Source: a virus. From it: a stretch of 64,000 nucleotides of DNA. Below the pieces are notes generated by a model that was not told the DNA's origin, made no database searches, and saw only the letters and a program-made list of their open reading frames with translations. Positions 2,042 to 14,049 of this stretch are shown here, in pieces. Positions within the stretch are counted from its first letter, which is position 1. The number at the start of each line of letters is the position of its first letter. The translations under genes and the position numbers were made by a program. The stretch lies in the IMG/VR virus record IMGVR_UViG_3300008117_000088, positions 1 through 64,000 of that record; one strand, written 5' to 3'.

Positions 2042-2326
2042 ATGGCAATCACAGCAGAAAACGCAAAGCGCATGATGTTAATCACCTCAAGCGCAAACCT
2101 CAGCGACGAGGACTTCCCGTTCTTTCGCAATCACATCACATCATTCAGCGAGTGGCTGGTATCCGAGGCAATCAACGACCTAGTGCGACTAGGTGTAGAT
2201 AAAGACCTTGCTTCCTCAATGCTCAACACCATCTCCCACATCTCAAGCATGGCGGGCGCAACCAATCTCTTTGATTACGGCGTGAGTGCCACAATCTTTG
2301 AGGAAAACGGACTTCGTGATGCGTAG
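2042..2326 (+). CDS. early hypothetical protein
   Basis: SD AAGGGG before ATG 2042. Confidence 0.7.
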   Translation: MAITAENAKRMMLITSSANLSDEDFPFFRNHITSFSEWLVSEAINDLVRLGVDKDLASSMLNTISHISSMAGATNLFDYGVSATIFEENGLRDA

Positions 2327-2480
2327 TCCTACTTACTATCGAATTCGAACACTTGTTCGGGTCTTATTCTGGACATCATTAGTCATAGGTATCTATTACC
2401 TAGCCACTCACATCAACTGGGTTGGCGATGGATACTGCTGGGGAACAATCACCGAGTGCTTCTTCGAGGAGGGGAAATGA
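2319..2480 (+). CDS. small membrane protein
   Basis: Hydrophobic segment LVRVLFWTSLVIGIYYLA; overlaps upstream stop. Confidence 0.65.
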   Translation: MRSPTYYRIRTLVRVLFWTSLVIGIYYLATHINWVGDGYCWGTITECFFEEGK

Positions 2481-2587
2481 CAGACGGCGAGATGATTGAC
2501 CAAATCATGGAATGGATCAACACGGACGGCGAACAGCTATCTGATGAAGATGTCATGAACAACATTAGGGAAATGCTCAAACAATAG
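2477..2587 (+). CDS. 36-aa acidic protein MTDGEMIDQIMEWINTDGEQLSDEDVMNNIREMLKQ
   Basis: ATGA overlap; SD GGAGGGG. Confidence 0.65.
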   Translation: MTDGEMIDQIMEWINTDGEQLSDEDVMNNIREMLKQ

Positions 2588-2602
2588 AGTTGCCCCACAA
2601 CA

Positions 2603-2634
2603 GCGGAGCGCCTGCCAATCGGTGGGCGCTTCGT
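2603..2634 (+). terminator. hairpin ending cassette 1
   Basis: GCGGAGCGCCTGCC-AATC-GGTGGGCGCTTCGT. Confidence 0.6.
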
Positions 2635-2648
2635 CTTGCTCGGCGAAA

Positions 2649-2789
2649 TGTTTGTGTTGGTCAGCCCACCCACCCTGACTCAACCCTAAAGGGAATAGGG
2701 GGGAGAGAAGCTCGAACAGATGTTCGGCCAGGAATGTGATGTAGATAACAACAAAGCCTATTCCGCTAACTGTGAGAAAGTGAGAAGGT
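2649..2789 (+). promoter_or_regulatory. early module 2
   Basis: TGTTTGTGTTGG 2649; CCCACCCACCC 2665; TGTGA-N6-TAACA 2735; TTCCGC 2761-17-GAAGGT 2784. Confidence 0.75.
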
Positions 2790-9076: not shown

Positions 9077-9180
9077 CGGGCAGACAAGTAGTCTGTCCTA
9101 CCTGCGGTAAAGAATTGGAGGTGAGGTCGGGCATCTTTGCCCACCAAACCCTCGCCCGCCATATGAAGGAGCATGAATGA
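9073..9180 (+). CDS. 35-aa C2H2-type zinc-finger micro-protein
   Basis: MTGRQVVCPTCGKELEVRSGIFAHQTLARHMKEHE; ATGA overlaps at both ends. Confidence 0.7.
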   Translation: MTGRQVVCPTCGKELEVRSGIFAHQTLARHMKEHE

Positions 9181-9431
9181 GCACTGATGATATATCTGTA
9201 GGCGATGCAATTATTGTAAAGGCGCTGTTGAACGGCACCTTTACTGATCCCGATGGAAACAAAGCAACATTAACTGTTAAGGGTTTTGTTGGTGCAAATA
9301 TCATTGCAGCTCGTGTGGCGTTGCTCACGCAACCACGCCCACTATCTGAAAGTGATATCACTGAGATTGTTAAGTTTCTCAAGGATGCAGAGACTGCATT
9401 GAACATGCTTGAGGACAAGGAACAAGAATGA
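9177..9431 (+). CDS. hypothetical protein
   Basis: SD AAGGAG; ATGA overlaps. Confidence 0.7.
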   Translation: MSTDDISVGDAIIVKALLNGTFTDPDGNKATLTVKGFVGANIIAARVALLTQPRPLSESDITEIVKFLKDAETALNMLEDKEQE

Positions 9432-10063
9432 AAGCGGTGTCGTTATTCGCCGGGGTCGGAGGTTTCGATCTTGCATTAGAACGTGCGGGTGTACCTGTTG
9501 TTGCATCTGTAGAGATTGATAAGCATGCACGTGGTGTACTGCAACAACAATTTCCTAACACAACATTATTGGAGGATGTAAAAAATGTCACAGGCGATCA
9601 ACTTAGAGAACTCGGATTCGAAGGTTCTGACGGAATTATTGTCGGAGGCTTCCCGTGTCAAGACCTCAGCGTTGCTGGTAAGCGAGCAGGTCTTGCTGGA
9701 GGTAGAAGCGGACTCTTCTGGGAAATCTGTCGCATCCTCGACGAAACGAAAACGAAATGGTTCGTCCTCGAAAACGTCCCCGGTCTTTTGTCATCTAACG
9801 AAGGACGAGATATGGGAACCGTCATCCAAGCGTTGGTTGAGCGCGGGTATGGGGTCGCATACAGGATTCTTGACGCTCAATACTTTGGAGTCGCCCAAAG
9901 AAGACGTCGTATCTTCATTGTCGGATGTCTTGGAGACAACGGGCGAGCACCTGCAGAAGTACTTGCTCTCATCGAAGGCATGCGAGGGTATTCTGAGGCG
10001 ATCAACCAAAAAGGGAAAACAACTTCCTCCCTTGCTTCACTCAGCTTTGGAGAACATGACTAA
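9428..10063 (+). CDS. DNA (cytosine-5) methyltransferase, N-terminal catalytic part (motifs I-VIII)
   Basis: FAGVGG (I), GGFPCQD (IV), ENV (VI), QRRRRIF (VIII). Confidence 0.92.
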   Translation: MKAVSLFAGVGGFDLALERAGVPVVASVEIDKHARGVLQQQFPNTTLLEDVKNVTGDQLRELGFEGSDGIIVGGFPCQDLSVAGKRAGLAGGRSGLFWEICRILDETKTKWFVLENVPGLLSSNEGRDMGTVIQALVERGYGVAYRILDAQYFGVAQRRRRIFIVGCLGDNGRAPAEVLALIEGMRGYSEAINQKGKTTSSLASLSFGEHD

Positions 10064-10082
10064 TGTGGTTCATAAAGAGTAG
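9585..10082 (+). CDS. overprinted MTase beta-like subunit in alternative frame
   Basis: SSLSDVLE...KYLLSSKACEGILRRSTKKGKQLPPLLHSAL, recalled pattern of M.EcoHK31I-beta-like polypeptides; true start uncertain. Confidence 0.6.
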   Translation: MSQAINLENSDSKVLTELLSEASRVKTSALLVSEQVLLEVEADSSGKSVASSTKRKRNGSSSKTSPVFCHLTKDEIWEPSSKRWLSAGMGSHTGFLTLNTLESPKEDVVSSLSDVLETTGEHLQKYLLSSKACEGILRRSTKKGKQLPPLLHSALENMTNVVHKE

Positions 10083-10602
10083 GCGTGCAAAGGACGTGGA
10101 AGATTATGAAACTTGGGTTGATGCGGAGGTTACTCCTACATTGAACGCATTCGATAACAATGGCGATACACGATCAACGGTGCTTATCTTCTACACTGGT
10201 ACCTTTGGTGAAGTACGAGTACAGGGAGATGTGATTAATACGTTGCCGGCAAAGATGGGAACGGGTGGTAATAACACTCCTATGATGGCATTCCCTATCC
10301 AGGGAACAATCATCGGTCGCAGTGATACTGCTGGACCACAAGGCAAAGGATTTGGTGATTCTACTGATCCTATGTACACAATAGATACCGTTGGTGGTAA
10401 TGCGGTTGCAACTCCTGCAATGGTGCGACGTTTAACTCCGTTAGAATGTGAGCGCCTACAAGGGTTTCCCGATAACTGGACTGCATCACAGTCTGATTCA
10501 CAACGATATAAACAAATGGGCAATGCGGTAGCAGTACCGGTTGTTCAATGGATAATAGATAGGTTGGTTGACGTTGAAACAAGATTTAATGCAAATGCTT
10601 AA
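10063..10602 (+). CDS. cytosine MTase C-terminal part (TRD repeats plus motifs IX-X)
   Basis: RRLTPLECERLQGFP and YKQMGNAV; TAATG coupling. Confidence 0.88.
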   Translation: MWFIKSRRAKDVEDYETWVDAEVTPTLNAFDNNGDTRSTVLIFYTGTFGEVRVQGDVINTLPAKMGTGGNNTPMMAFPIQGTIIGRSDTAGPQGKGFGDSTDPMYTIDTVGGNAVATPAMVRRLTPLECERLQGFPDNWTASQSDSQRYKQMGNAVAVPVVQWIIDRLVDVETRFNANA

Positions 10603-10771
10603 GTCTCAAGTAAAAGACATGTATGGAAAGCACGGCTTAAAAGCTGTGGATGAGTATTTAGATCAAAACTACAAGTTAATACCTTGGGAGCAATGCTACG
10701 AGTGCGACAAGATTACGCCCCGTGATCCACGCACACTAAAGTGTTTCTTTGAGGAGGATCATGAGTTCTAA
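10595..10771 (+). CDS. small Cys-containing hypothetical protein
   Basis: ORF track, start trimmed. Confidence 0.55.
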   Translation: MLKSQVKDMYGKHGLKAVDEYLDQNYKLIPWEQCYECDKITPRDPRTLKCFFEEDHEF

Positions 10772-11520: not shown

Positions 11521-11781
11521 TTAGTACGACAATATTTCTGGCAGTACTTCTTTACCTATAATTCTGTGCTTTCTTCTGTACTCATCTCTTTGATCTGTCG
11601 TAGTGCCCGCCCATATTCCTTGAACTTTATTCTCTATTGCGTATTTAAAACATTCATCTTGAACTGGGCAGTTTTTACATATTCTCTTCACATGACCCAA
11701 CTGTTGATAATGCATTCCTTCATCAGGAAAGAACAATTCAGTGTCAAGTCCTAAACATGAAGGGGTGCCACTAAAGCGCAT
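11521..11781 (-). CDS. whiB: WhiB-family transcription factor
   Basis: C...ELFFP...CKNCPVQDEC...GIWAG motif. Confidence 0.9.
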   Translation of the reverse strand: MRFSGTPSCLGLDTELFFPDEGMHYQQLGHVKRICKNCPVQDECFKYAIENKVQGIWAGTTTDQRDEYRRKHRIIGKEVLPEILSY

Positions 11782-12019
11782 TACTCTCCGGTTTCACTGT
11801 TCTTAATGAAGCAATTTTATCTGGTCTAAATCCAGACCAATGATTGTTATTGCTGACCACAACCGGAGTGTATTTATACCCCATAGAAACTACTAGATCA
11901 TAAGCATCTTTGTTTTCAGTTATGTCAACAGTATTAAATTCAATACCGTATTTGTTTAAATACTTTTTAGTTGCATCGCATTGTGGGCAATCTGGTTTTG
12001 TATATACCGTAGTGCTCAT
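11771..12019 (-). CDS. nrdH: NrdH-like glutaredoxin
   Basis: VYTKPDCPQC and WSGFRPDKI. Confidence 0.92.
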   Translation of the reverse strand: MSTTVYTKPDCPQCDATKKYLNKYGIEFNTVDITENKDAYDLVVSMGYKYTPVVVSNNNHWSGFRPDKIASLRTVKPESNAL

Positions 12020-14049
12020 TGATTCTCCTTAATTAATTTGATCTCACATGCATCAGTTGTGCAGTATGCCTCACCAATCGCATCGGCTGCAAGTCCTGCG
12101 TATACTCCGCTGAAATCTATGGGGAATAATTTCATCGTTGCATCTTCATATTCTTTTTCAGTAATCTGGGTGTACGGCATCTGCGGATAGGTCTCGTTCC
12201 CCATCGGTAAGAAGGAAACGGTTTTGAGCTGTCCGTCGAACATGTGAAGCGCTGTACCTACAGCTGACTTCTCCGTATCTTTGTTAAAGGATACTGTCAC
12301 TGAAACAGAATTGTCGGACCAATAGTATTGAGCGGTCGAAGCAAGGTGCATCTTTTCATAAATTGATACGTCTTTCTCCGAGCGTTTAGCATTAGATTTA
12401 ATAGGGAAGAACACCACAGAGGTTGTCTTTGGTGATTCTGATGCCTTCTCTACCCGATAGTTAGCCATCTTAAATAACGGCAACATCGGATCTTCATTGC
12501 TAAATCTAATAGCGCGGAGGAAGTATTCACCTCCTGGTGTCCAGTGAACTCCTGGTGATTCACCTGCAAGTATTGAAACTGTTCCTGATGGCTTAACTGT
12601 TGTCATCTTGATTGACTCACGGGTACATAGCCACTCTGAATATGTAACGTCGTATTGCTTTACGACTTCATATCCTGCATCCATCCATTCACGTAATGCC
12701 GGCATGCCTTTGGTATCTGCAAAGTTAGCTACGCCTGAAATAGATGTTCCAATACGGCGATTGCGTTGCATGATTGCATTGGTTTCTTCCCAGTGGGTAG
12801 GCAACAGGGTTACAGTCTTGGCATATAAATACGCAAACTTAAGTGTGCGCTTGAAATCTTCAAGGCTGTCATGACGATTTAAATAAGTTTCTACAAGTGT
12901 GCACATTTCATATGACTCAAGGCTCTGTTCAGCACATGGGTTATACCCAGCTACACGCCAGTCTTTGTTATTAACACCATCTTTGATACGCCCATACTTA
13001 CGGCTCATGTCCATCCATACAACACCTGGCTCACCGTTTAACGCAATACCATCTACGATCTTGTTTAAGTCCATACCAACGGTTGCGTCAATGGAGTTAT
13101 TGCTCATCCATGCCCAGCCTGGATTCTTAGGATCATAGGAGTTGCGCTCCGGAAATACTTCAGCGTTCTTTAGGTTAAGGAAGTTCTCGTCATCCGCTCT
13201 ACCAATTAAAAGCTCAGCAGAACGACGTACGTTGCCGCTTACAACACAAACCCCGATTAGGTTTCCAAGATCGGCTATATCAGTGCGAGTTAACTTCTCT
13301 CCAGCCCTACCCGTAAACAGTTTACGAATATGGTTGTGAAGTTTTTCTAACGGCTCGTGCCCGGCCGCTGTTCCCCCAAAAGTTTTGATTGGCGTACCTG
13401 CTGGGCGGACCTCTTTGTAATCAAATAGTGGAGCCTTCTGATCTGGTCGGAGGTAGGAATTGATGAGGAGTGTGACGGAATCAACCCATCCTTCTCTGGT
13501 GTCTGGGACGACATGAGTGTCTCCTTCCTGTGGTTCGTAGATTTGGAATTCTTTGTCTGCGCCTTTATCGTCAAAACCAACTCCAACGCCAAGCATCGAT
13601 GCTTCCATTAGAAATGCGAATGGTCTTGCGGGGTCTATTTTAGTCATTGATGTGGTTGAAACGAATGCACAGTTCTGCAAAGCTGCAGAGTTTTTTTGCT
13701 CGTTTACCAGTGGGGTTCCCATAACCCACAACCCACGTCCGGGTGGAGTCCACTTCAAATGAAACAGGCGATCAAAGGCTTCTTTGGCTGATGCCTGAGC
13801 TCGTGCATCATTCCATGGGAGTCGGTTGGATTTGCAGTGGTCTTTTTGTAATGAATACATGCCATTGATTACTCGCTCACAAACGTCTACCCAAGTTTCC
13901 TTTGTCCCGTCCTCTTTGAGTCTTGAGTAAGTTCGTAGGAATGTGATCTCTCCTACTGAGTTTCCGGCTGCATCTTTATAGCCCCAAGGGACCTGCTTCT
14001 CCTTGTAGGTGGACACGAACTCGTCCGCTAGTCGAAAACTTAATGACAT
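12016..14049 (-). CDS. nrdJ: class II (adenosylcobalamin) ribonucleotide reductase
   Basis: PPGRGLW, NCAF, GNVRRSA, NPCAEQ, TTVKPSGT, C-terminal CTTDAC. Confidence 0.93.
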   Translation of the reverse strand: MSLSFRLADEFVSTYKEKQVPWGYKDAAGNSVGEITFLRTYSRLKEDGTKETWVDVCERVINGMYSLQKDHCKSNRLPWNDARAQASAKEAFDRLFHLKWTPPGRGLWVMGTPLVNEQKNSAALQNCAFVSTTSMTKIDPARPFAFLMEASMLGVGVGFDDKGADKEFQIYEPQEGDTHVVPDTREGWVDSVTLLINSYLRPDQKAPLFDYKEVRPAGTPIKTFGGTAAGHEPLEKLHNHIRKLFTGRAGEKLTRTDIADLGNLIGVCVVSGNVRRSAELLIGRADDENFLNLKNAEVFPERNSYDPKNPGWAWMSNNSIDATVGMDLNKIVDGIALNGEPGVVWMDMSRKYGRIKDGVNNKDWRVAGYNPCAEQSLESYEMCTLVETYLNRHDSLEDFKRTLKFAYLYAKTVTLLPTHWEETNAIMQRNRRIGTSISGVANFADTKGMPALREWMDAGYEVVKQYDVTYSEWLCTRESIKMTTVKPSGTVSILAGESPGVHWTPGGEYFLRAIRFSNEDPMLPLFKMANYRVEKASESPKTTSVVFFPIKSNAKRSEKDVSIYEKMHLASTAQYYWSDNSVSVTVSFNKDTEKSAVGTALHMFDGQLKTVSFLPMGNETYPQMPYTQITEKEYEDATMKLFPIDFSGVYAGLAADAIGEAYCTTDACEIKLIKENQ

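Follow-up and report, generated by a model that had tools for sequence, protein, structure and literature searches.

A reading frame overprinted on the split C5-cytosine methyltransferase genes of an uncultivated freshwater phage, and its possible role as a third subunit

What is a third open reading frame doing inside a phage DNA methyltransferase gene? In bacteria and phages it is rare for long genes to overlap on the same strand with selection demonstrable in both frames, and such genes are discarded by gene callers. In the window (the whole stretch of DNA that was analysed, 64,000 nucleotides of an uncultivated freshwater phage), a predicted C5-cytosine methyltransferase is encoded by two consecutive genes, A and C, and a third protein of ~165 residues, B, is nested in the +1 frame of the first. 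Two points are at issue: whether B is a gene in its own right and, if it is, how its product relates to the enzyme.

The locus and its three reading frames

An earlier note on this DNA had described a three-piece cytosine methyltransferase with an overprinted subunit. Translation recovered all three ORFs (Table 1), each in a different frame (A, A+1 and A+2 for A, B and C, respectively), and the three-piece description was borne out by these ORFs and by the matches of A and C to PF00145. ORF A matched positions 1-166 of this family (E 1.6e-55) as well as TIGR00675 dcm (E 5e-53), and its translation shows the large-domain motifs I, IV, VI and VIII of C5-methyltransferases (FAGVGG, PCQ, ENV and QRRRR). 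ORF C matched PF00145 positions 254-322 (E 3.8e-17), bears RRLTPLECERLQGFP and GNAV, and holds the variable recognition region in addition to motifs IX and X. This division between adjacent genes, with motifs I-VIII on one chain and the variable region and motifs IX-X on the second, is that of M.AquI, as the earlier note had proposed. Because C's start codon overlaps A's stop codon, C would be translated by coupling. Together, A and C (with B) likely form one orphan phage C5-cytosine DNA methyltransferase, an activity predicted by sequence.

Table 1. Features of the methyltransferase locus (positions are those of the window)
Feature	Position	Strand	Description	Basis
ORF A	9428..10063	+	211 aa, predicted catalytic N-terminal chain: motifs I-VIII and 45-residue tail	PF00145, TIGR00675, translation
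ORF A start overlap, ATGA	9428-9431	+	A's ATG shares bases with the TGA of the upstream ORF 9177-9431	
Motif I, FAGVGG (AdoMet binding)	9446..9463	+	A residues 7-12	F7-G12 columns near-invariant or invariant, alignment A3
GGAGGA, Shine-Dalgarno-like	9571..9576	+	8 nt upstream of B's ATG; within A's L-E-D codons	
ORF B	9585..10082	+	165 aa, +1 of A; extends 19 nt beyond A's stop and shares C's first 20 nt	
Motif IV, PCQ (catalytic cysteine C77)	9653..9661	+	A residues P76, C77, Q78	Invariant in alignment A3
Motif VI, ENV	9770..9778	+	A residues 115-117	E115, N116, V117 invariant in alignment A3
Predicted folded part of B	9840..10079	+	B residues 86-165	AlphaFold2 model, complex-model interface residues, frame-B purifying selection from ~residue 111
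Motif VIII, QRRRR	9896..9910	+	A residues 157-161	Alignment A3, codon-phase entropy
TAATG	10061..10065	+	A's TAA stop overlapping C's ATG start	
ORF C	10063..10602	+	179 aa, frame A+2: recognition region and motifs IX, X	PF00145, alignment A4
Motif IX, VRRLTPLECERLQGFP	10423..10470	+	C residues 121-136	Invariant columns in alignment A4
Motif X, GNAV	10519..10530	+	C residues 153-156	Invariant columns in alignment A4

A decaying or mis-assembled methyltransferase gene, its three frames being frameshift errors, was considered and is very improbable. In its favor, the window lacks ~80 nt (3n+2) relative to locus L007 between B's end and the conserved junction, a loss by which C was moved to frame A+2, and the database ORFs P0007, P0062 and L159 are A/B indel chimeras. 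Against it, contigs from three studies carry the same sequence, although one of the runs may be the source sample: those of runs X1 and X6 cover 9400-10650 with 0 differences and 0 gaps relative to the window, and that of run X8, covering 9755-10374, is identical with no indels listed. The A/C split is therefore not an assembly artefact, which also speaks against the sequencing error at 10063 that the earlier note had named as a possible flaw. A protein from another data set (P0002) has the same ...ENMTNVV... junction as the window. Decay or mis-assembly is further opposed by the three intact ORFs with their start signals, by the new TAATG coupling and by the layout of the closest relatives, among which a split A and C with B is commonest. 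Chimeric ORFs running from the A N-terminus into the B C-terminus (P0002, P0007, P0062, L159) were rejected as evidence, since they carry indels and leave motif VIII in another frame.

A TAA at 9579-9581 shuts the +1 frame upstream, so that the ATG at 9585 is the first possible start of B. The protein ends in SSLSDVLE...KACEGILRR...GKQLPPLL, as quoted in the earlier note, and matched phrog_16143 (E 4e-15). Like the other nested members of this family, which comprise ~150-190 codons in the +1 frame, B lies across motifs IV/VI-VIII, ends ~45 codons past motif VIII and shows the terminal domain pattern L.D.LE...Y.LS.KA..GILRR...GK.LP. Residues L112, L116, A132, G135, I136, R139 and P148 are invariant in alignments A1 and A5. 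Read in frame B, the bases of motif IV give 'S(P/R)(A/V)KTS' and those of motif VI 'SKTSP'.

Conservation of and selection on the nested frame

Among loci picked by B-like similarity, B was found at +1 of motifs I-VIII in 87 of 87 viral loci, in 80 of 81 loci of bacterial genomes and in P1 dmt. A set of 70 loci picked by A similarity alone, free of that bias, had B at +1 in 65, and the remaining five keep +1 ORFs of 154-312 codons; the +2 frames in this set mostly measured 7-86 codons. A profile of B finds 6,902 protein cluster representatives. The nested gene is conserved in phages with hosts among the Actinomycetota, Pseudomonadota, Cyanobacteriota and Bacillota, as well as in prophage-like loci of bacteria from several more phyla. 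The stop position of B, its Shine-Dalgarno-like site and its start are conserved among relatives, a Shine-Dalgarno-like core preceding B's first start at 59 of 85 loci (69%), compared with 20.5% at other positions in the same genes.

The codons of A were shuffled synonymously. For the window, 10% of the trials then left the +1 frame open, and the mean over 85 loci was 6%; the observed +1 frame carried stops in 0 of the 85 loci versus 2.6 expected from the shuffles, and the +2 frame held 7.5 stops on average. With all 85 frames open, the concern of the earlier note that the alternative frame might be broken in homologues did not materialize at these loci. In a version anchored at motif IV, of moderate power and with some anchors misplaced, 150 of 164 loci were open versus 33% of shuffles.

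By codon-phase entropy, the coding signature leaves frame A for frame B just past motif VIII. Wobble entropy of A fell from 1.76 upstream of the overlap to 1.03 at residues 141-172, which is the suppression of synonymous variation for which the earlier note had proposed to look. Past motif VIII, the most variable codon position is A's first, which is B's third (1.44 versus 0.77), and amino-acid entropy amounts to 2.05 in frame A versus 1.07-1.37 in frame B. In the same segment, Javan422 and TC7 share ~56% identity in frame B versus ~20% in frame A (hand count).

Could B nevertheless be untranslated, its openness and similarity merely following from base composition and from how strongly A is conserved? 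Its first 110 residues lie over the most conserved motifs of A, and much of the similarity there is accounted for by constraint on frame A; from motif IV to the B domain alone, one shuffle in three is open. We give this explanation hardly any weight: past motif VIII it is frame B that is conserved and frame A poorly so, with variation concentrated at B's third position, as the Javan422/TC7 comparison also illustrates, and the conserved stop, ribosome-binding-like site and start likewise speak against it. The codon-phase switch and the lack of stops relative to synonymous shuffles show that purifying selection acts on frame B and that the overprinted gene is real, which upholds the overprinted ORF of the earlier note; we infer that B is translated.

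A recoding scheme would account for the same switch in another way. A +1 shift past motif VIII (A to B) and a second near 10063-10080 (B to C) would give one chain of motifs I-VIII, B domain, recognition region and motifs IX-X. The frames of the window advance from A through A+1 to A+2, as the scheme requires, the best local alignment of the B domain to E. coli Dcm, a weak one, falls just past Dcm motif VIII, and the junction of A's end and C's start is unusually conserved at the DNA level in split relatives. Recoding is nonetheless far-fetched. Relatives have C in frame A at 55 loci and in A+1 at 27, never in A+2, so no single frameshift scheme fits the family; no slippery run is present at the A-to-B switch; and the ~100 open upstream codons of frame B, together with the conserved Shine-Dalgarno-like site and start, would be superfluous for a frameshift product. 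As to the Dcm alignment itself, the resemblance of the B domain to the Dcm segment past motif VIII is too faint to count as homology (hhalign P 0.016, probability 2.8%, with a shallow profile built from close Dcm orthologues only), and hhalign of B against the single E. coli Dcm sequence gave no signal.

A candidate bridging subunit

The reading that we favor, with a probability of about 0.6, is a three-polypeptide C5-methyltransferase in which B is a bridging third subunit. Chain A would provide the AdoMet pocket and the catalytic cysteine (motifs I-VIII), and chain C, made by coupled translation, the DNA-recognition region and motifs IX-X. Chain B would be initiated at its own Shine-Dalgarno site and ATG within A, one base out of step. 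Its residues ~1-85 are probably a loosely constrained, disordered leader over A's motifs IV-VII, and its last ~80 residues a hairpin and four-helix unit over A's motif VII-VIII and poorly conserved tail. By bridging A and C, B would complete or stabilize the enzyme.

This arrangement draws on structure prediction and on the layouts of relatives. In the AlphaFold2 model of B, pLDDT reached 80-96 at residues 121-165 (block means) and was below 65 elsewhere; a beta hairpin is followed by helices 111-117, 121-124, 130-143 and 149-164, with residues 1-85 predicted to be disordered. A complex of A, C and B(60-165) was modeled with an ipSAE of 0.84 in all three runs, the best of three controls giving 0.17; this score is the model's own confidence, obtained with author-made alignments for a three-chain job unlike the calibration, in which 58 of 80 solved complexes and 2 of 110 mismatched pairs attained this mark. 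The runs share at least 72% of contacts, with partner pLDDT of at least 79. In the model, strand 86-91 of B docks antiparallel on the exposed edge strand 142-147 of A (motif VII), and B also touches residues 39-58, 74-78 and 118-132 of C, contacting its recognition region and motif IX.

Several relatives hold the B domain and the C-terminal motifs on one chain. In loci L216 and L246 the B-homologous nested ORF extends into motif IX, motif X remaining in the main frame, and in L237 it extends into motifs IX and X; in the database proteins P0188, P0201 and P0163, the B region is followed by PF00145 positions 238-323. P0061 and P0063 are B-C fusion proteins in the database. Since a genome scan seeded with P0063 mostly gave genes for a single chain that have B nested in them, P0063 itself may have arisen through an indel. 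The layouts form a series: a single chain with B, an EcoHK31I-like form, A followed by a joined B-C, and separate A, B and C. The joining of the B domain to motif IX or IX-X in relatives and the complex model together make B a likely subunit, and we infer that it binds A and C and is needed for activity.

B might instead be a real protein that is not a stoichiometric subunit: it could regulate the expression or timing of the methyltransferase, or be a factor that binds DNA or counters restriction and merely shares the DNA. This is unlikely, yet it has points in its favor. B is retained in complete single-chain enzymes (50 of 87 viral and 75 of 81 bacterial loci), which hold all ten motifs in one frame; since by Pfam these look complete even when B is disregarded, B may serve regulation or be dispensable. 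Its last helices are basic (RR..K.GK), and known enzyme folds and families gave no match to it: a Foldseek search of the PDB with the B model returned nothing below E 4, its sequence profile had no match among PDB chains up to E 10, neither Pfam nor NCBIfam gave a family (PF00145 not at E up to 1), and matches in the ESM Atlas were to viral clusters without names only. An unrelated function is hard to reconcile with the covalent joining described above; the complex model, moreover, binds B to A and C (0.84 versus 0.17), and among ~240 loci examined B was never found apart from a C5-methyltransferase gene. Metatranscriptome contigs over 9971-10121 were set aside as proof of transcription, as they indicate at most RNA and could be DNA carry-over.

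For the bridging subunit, the complex modeling proposed in the earlier note seated B and C together on A. That note had suggested alternative partner subunits and possibly switchable specificity. The former does not agree with the data: B, lacking a recognition-domain or IX-X match, cannot replace C, is kept in single-chain enzymes and is modeled on A together with C. Switchable specificity is unsupported, given the joint seating.

A wider reading, to which we give somewhat less than even odds, holds that a very large clade of C5-methyltransferases from phages and prophages, P1 Dmt and the Cluster J enzymes among them, cannot do without the B-type product as a subunit. 'Single-gene' enzymes would then really be two- or three-chain, the segment past motif VIII being delivered in trans, and the M.EcoHK31I, two-piece and three-piece forms would have arisen as the nested ORF was joined to motifs IX and X or separated from them. 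Selection maintains the nested frame in hundreds of sampled relatives, among which is the textbook phage P1. Should B be a subunit, recombinant expression from the annotated gene silently co-expresses it, re-coded or codon-optimized methyltransferase versions lose it, and thousands of phage methyltransferases are incompletely annotated. The layout series offers a natural experiment in which enzymes were split and re-joined via overlapping frames.

Comparison with known systems

Lee, Kam and Shaw reportedly described M.EcoHK31I in 1995 as an alpha/beta C5-methyltransferase. This enzyme of E. coli HK31 (YGGCCR) needs a second polypeptide, whose gene is read from the catalytic gene in a different frame; motif IX is on beta, the recognition domain and motif X are on alpha, and the N-terminus of beta is largely dispensable, with deletions of up to 67 aa (PMC2836561, PMC3404938). 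The link to beta drawn in the earlier note held in part. B is likewise nested in another frame of the catalytic gene, save for its last 19 nt, by which it runs beyond A, and this likeness rests on layout; the disordered leader of B, comparable to the dispensable N-terminus of beta, may be dispensable too; and L216 and L246 show the exact arrangement, the nested ORF having motif IX and the main frame motif X. The B of the window itself, in contrast, is without motif IX, and recognition region, motif IX and motif X all lie in chain C. The long-isolated M.EcoHK31I case is hereby placed in a large family.

[quoted passage not shown] The window's A and C match this division, but its nested third gene has not been described for M.AquI (PMC3404938). 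Searches of the literature found no description of the nested ORF. The out-of-frame HNH 'ShiLan' insert of actinophage methylases (PMC11855218) is a different element.

A split A and C with a separate B is a recurrent variant (33 of 87 viral loci), including mycobacteriophages Omega (gp127/gp128) and Dove. In Omega and the Cluster J phages (NC_004688, PQ184790), whose enzymes belong to the same family (A ~62-66% identical), annotation gives the methyltransferase as two genes. A +1 ORF of 157-159 codons, missing from the annotation, terminates in the domain seen in B (SSLSDILE...KACQGILRR...). In Omega, C lies in A's frame past a stop and B stops ~100 nt short of C, whereas the window's C, in frame A+2, overlaps A as well as B. 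Coliphage P1 Dmt is a bifunctional Dam/C5 methyltransferase whose C5 part belongs to the same family as the window's enzyme. It too contains a +1 ORF that is missing from the annotation (L087 2159-2650); this stays open for 163 codons and has the B domain at its end, but here the enzyme is one long, unsplit chain fused to an N6-adenine methyltransferase.

Layout and integrity of the methyltransferase locus

The region 9428-10602 of the window is covered by three ORFs on one strand, each in a different frame and each a piece of a C5-cytosine methyltransferase locus (Table). The TAA stop of A overlaps the ATG of C (TAATG), and the ATG of A in turn shares bases with the stop codon of the preceding ORF (ATGA); the block was therefore read as a coupled operon. 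The ATG of the nested ORF B is immediately preceded by TAA, with GGAGGA 8 nt upstream. The source record of the window is a 96,030-bp IMG/VR virus with direct terminal repeats.

Table. Coordinates of the features discussed
Feature	Position	Strand	Description
ORF A	window 9428-10063	+	211 aa; Pfam PF00145 positions 1-166, E 1.6e-55; motifs I FAGVGG, IV PCQ, VI ENV, VIII QRRRR
ORF B	window 9585-10082	+	165 aa; +1 frame of A
ORF C	window 10063-10602	+	179 aa; PF00145 positions 254-322, E 3.8e-17; motifs IX VRRLTPLECERLQGFP, X GNAV
A-end/C-start junction	window 10040-10130; L026 2960-3040		also in L068, L036, L043 and others
Lone B/C stop	L009 2984-2989; L018 1882-1887; L023 2089-2094; L026 2951-2956; L027 2990-2995; L043 430-435		TAG, TGA or TAA, differing among loci
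WhiB-like small Cys protein	window 11521-11781	-	assigned by eye only
NrdH or glutaredoxin-like protein	window 11771-12019	-	assigned by eye only
Ribonucleotide-reductase-like ORF	window 12016-14049	-	677 aa; assigned by eye only
P1 nested frame	L087 (phage P1, NC_005856) 2159-2650		inside dmt; open 163 codons
Chimeric ORF	L159 2293-2949		motifs I-VI, then B domain
HNH endonuclease gene	L001 2904-3236; L002 3192-3404		Cluster J mycobacteriophages; H37, H38, H45

A 1,251-bp stretch was found at 98-100% of sampled words in 15 DNA runs, which came from about nine studies of lakes or fresh water. Contigs from runs X1 and X6 covered it entirely, showing 0 differences and 0 gaps; in X8, a contig was identical over 9755-10374. 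No indels relative to the window were listed in the run contigs of the stretch. Three studies agree, although the window record may itself derive from one of the runs. The split at 10063 is thus not an assembly error (the earlier note had raised a sequencing error), and a decaying or mis-assembled locus was considered highly improbable. Short contigs identical to 9971-10121, spanning the A/B/C junction, were also obtained from the aquatic metatranscriptome run X16, which could reflect transcription or DNA carry-over.

Between the end of B and a conserved junction, at which relatives read ...VVHKE-stop overlapping M(L)WF.KSRRA..., the window is ~80 nt (3n+2) shorter than L007-L009, its nearest relatives (87-88% identity in A). 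This deletion puts the short tail NVVHKE in frame B instead of frame A, and C in frame A+2, whereas C occupies A or A+1 in all relatives. The same junction as in the window was present in the independent database protein P0002. Double +1 frameshifting, yielding a single chain, would follow the frame order A, A+1, A+2, but this order is unique to the window, and such a route is most unlikely.

In split relatives, DNA at the junction, which in the window lies just downstream of the deletion, is conserved far above its surroundings, following the pattern ATG(TTG)TGGTTCA.AAAGAGTAGGCG...GA.GA.TA.GA.AC.TGG and encoding ...VVVHKE-stop and, one frame on, M(L)WF.KSRRAQ..D.ETW. This conservation may reflect dual coding alone or, additionally, a signal for coupling or recoding. 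Six split relatives have B and C in one frame with a single stop codon between them, so that one point change would fuse or split B-C; this arrangement fits the fused forms in locus L237 and database proteins P0188 and P0201.

Conservation of and selection on the nested frame

B matched phrog_16143 (E 4e-15), a small phage family whose sole label is 'DNA methyltransferase', and no family in Pfam or NCBIfam. Mycobacteriophages Omega and Dove (Cluster J) share the window's layout; their methyltransferase is annotated as two genes, with an unannotated +1 ORF of 157-159 codons ending SSLSDILE...KACQGILRR...LPEPL. The B domain lay +1 of motifs I-VIII in 87/87 loci chosen by B (80 from IMG/VR, six phage records and the window), in 80 of 81 chosen by a B-C protein (80 bacterial-genome loci and P1 dmt), and in 65 of 70 complete IMG/VR loci chosen, without bias, by A alone. 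The sole bacterial-set exception, L159, is an indel chimera, and the five remaining A-selected loci all the same had +1 ORFs of 154-312 codons. In nearly all loci of that set, only 7-86 codons were open in the +2 frame. Hence the alternative frame is not broken in these homologues, as the earlier note had allowed it might be. Bacterial loci included Acidobacteriota, Pseudomonadota, Planctomycetota, Actinomycetota, Chloroflexota and Spirochaetota. Typical lengths of the nested frame are 155-165 codons; it starts 47-60 codons into A in most loci and ends ~45 codons past motif VIII. A family profile retrieved 6,902 representatives of 50%-identity clusters at E <=1e-3 and 1,216 at E <=1e-30.

In phage P1, the +1 frame of dmt ends in the B domain (...LLSQVLEQ...YFLSSKACAGILRRGEKRRKSLPPLL...) and is missing from the annotation. 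Public protein sets also hold chimeric ORFs (P0002, P0007, P0062 and that of L159), which start with motifs I-VI, end in the B domain and originate from indels or deletions between frames. They bear the PF00145 label and could mislead annotation.

After synonymous shuffling of A codons, the +1 frame averaged 2.6 stops and was open in 6% of trials; it was open in 85/85 tested loci, where the +2 frame averaged 7.5 stops. Codon-phase entropy was computed over 72 non-redundant loci. The wobble entropy of A fell from 1.76 at residues 1-52, outside the overlap with B, to 1.54 (53-100), 1.21 (101-140) and 1.03 (141-172) within it, bearing out the suppressed synonymous variation proposed as a check. 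In the overlapping residues 173-211, after motif VIII, A position 1 (B position 3) was most variable, at 1.44 vs 0.77 at A position 3. B codons varied most at position 2 (A's wobble) up to residue 110 and at position 3 from residue 111 on, and amino-acid entropy in the last stretch was higher in frame A (2.05) than in frame B (1.07-1.37). The constrained part of each protein therefore overlies the tolerant part of the other, and such complementary constraint marks a genuine dual-coding region. A Shine-Dalgarno-like core preceded the first start of B in 59/85 loci, vs 20.5% elsewhere in these genes. The loci behind all these results are mutually related and mostly found via B, which the A-selected set and the shuffles offset only in part. 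Taken together, B is very probably a translated, selected gene, and there is little chance that it is an untranslated by-product.

Candidate role of B in the enzyme

B carries no motif IX or X and no recognition-domain match, and therefore cannot stand in for C. B is also retained in 50/87 viral and 75/81 bacterial loci in which the enzyme is a complete single chain, as it is in most relatives, and the alternative partner subunits suggested earlier were not borne out. In loci L216 and L246, the nested B homologue extends into motif IX while motif X remains in the main frame, which is the published arrangement of M.EcoHK31I (PMC2836561, PMC3404938); in L237, the nested ORF bears both motifs. 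Similarly, in database proteins P0188, P0201 and P0163 the B region is followed by PF00145 positions 238-323. This repeated covalent joining to integral enzyme parts argues that B is itself an enzyme part. The best local hhalign alignment of the B domain was to Dcm 292-341 (P 0.016), and the extended nested ORFs aligned, at low Pfam scores, to positions 170-296 of PF00145; these hint weakly that the domain may be the canonical segment after motif VIII.

An AlphaFold2 model of B, built from a 69-sequence alignment, showed residues 1-85 disordered, a small hairpin near 90-97 and helices at 111-117, 121-124, 130-143 and 149-164, with block-mean pLDDT 80-96 from residue 121. Searching the PDB with B by fold and by sequence gave no match. 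A three-chain model of A, C and B(60-165) reached ipSAE 0.84 in 3/3 runs (best of three controls 0.17), a mark attained by 58/80 solved complexes and 2/110 mismatched pairs, although a three-chain job differs from the tool's calibration. Runs shared >=72% of contacts, with partner pLDDT >=79. In the model, residues 86-91 of B form an antiparallel pair with the motif VII strand of A (142-147), and B further contacts residues 121-138 and 170-182 of A as well as 39-58, 74-78 and 118-132 (motif IX) of C. The predicted complex thus supports binding of B to A and C.

We propose an orphan, self-protective phage C5-methyltransferase whose three chains would be A, B and C. Translation would be coupled between A and C, B would be initiated at its own site within A's message, and B would bridge the catalytic and recognition chains, a role given a probability of about 0.6. 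That B is instead a regulator or serves some other function is rather unlikely.

Comparison with known systems

Next to the methyltransferase lie the WhiB-like, NrdH or glutaredoxin-like and ribonucleotide-reductase-like ORFs, whose presence, taken with the freshwater runs and the relatives among mycobacteriophages, suggests an actinobacterial host. The methyltransferase halves of Cluster J mycobacteriophages are followed, or in some members interrupted, by an HNH endonuclease gene, which recalls the out-of-frame HNH inserts of actinophage methylases (PMC11855218); the Schatzie record reads 'coding region not determined'.

Our literature search found no paper describing the nested ORF B. The A/C split, motifs I-VIII on A and IX-X on C, is like that of M.AquI, as the earlier note had recognized. 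Its parallel with M.EcoHK31I held for the nested-chain layout and failed for the defining feature, since the nested chain of the window lacks motif IX. To these systems the window adds a specific deletion, which re-frames C and the tail of B, and a form with three chains, A, B and C. That form recurs: it was seen in 33/87 B-selected loci, in most of the nearest A-selected relatives and in mycobacteriophage Omega.
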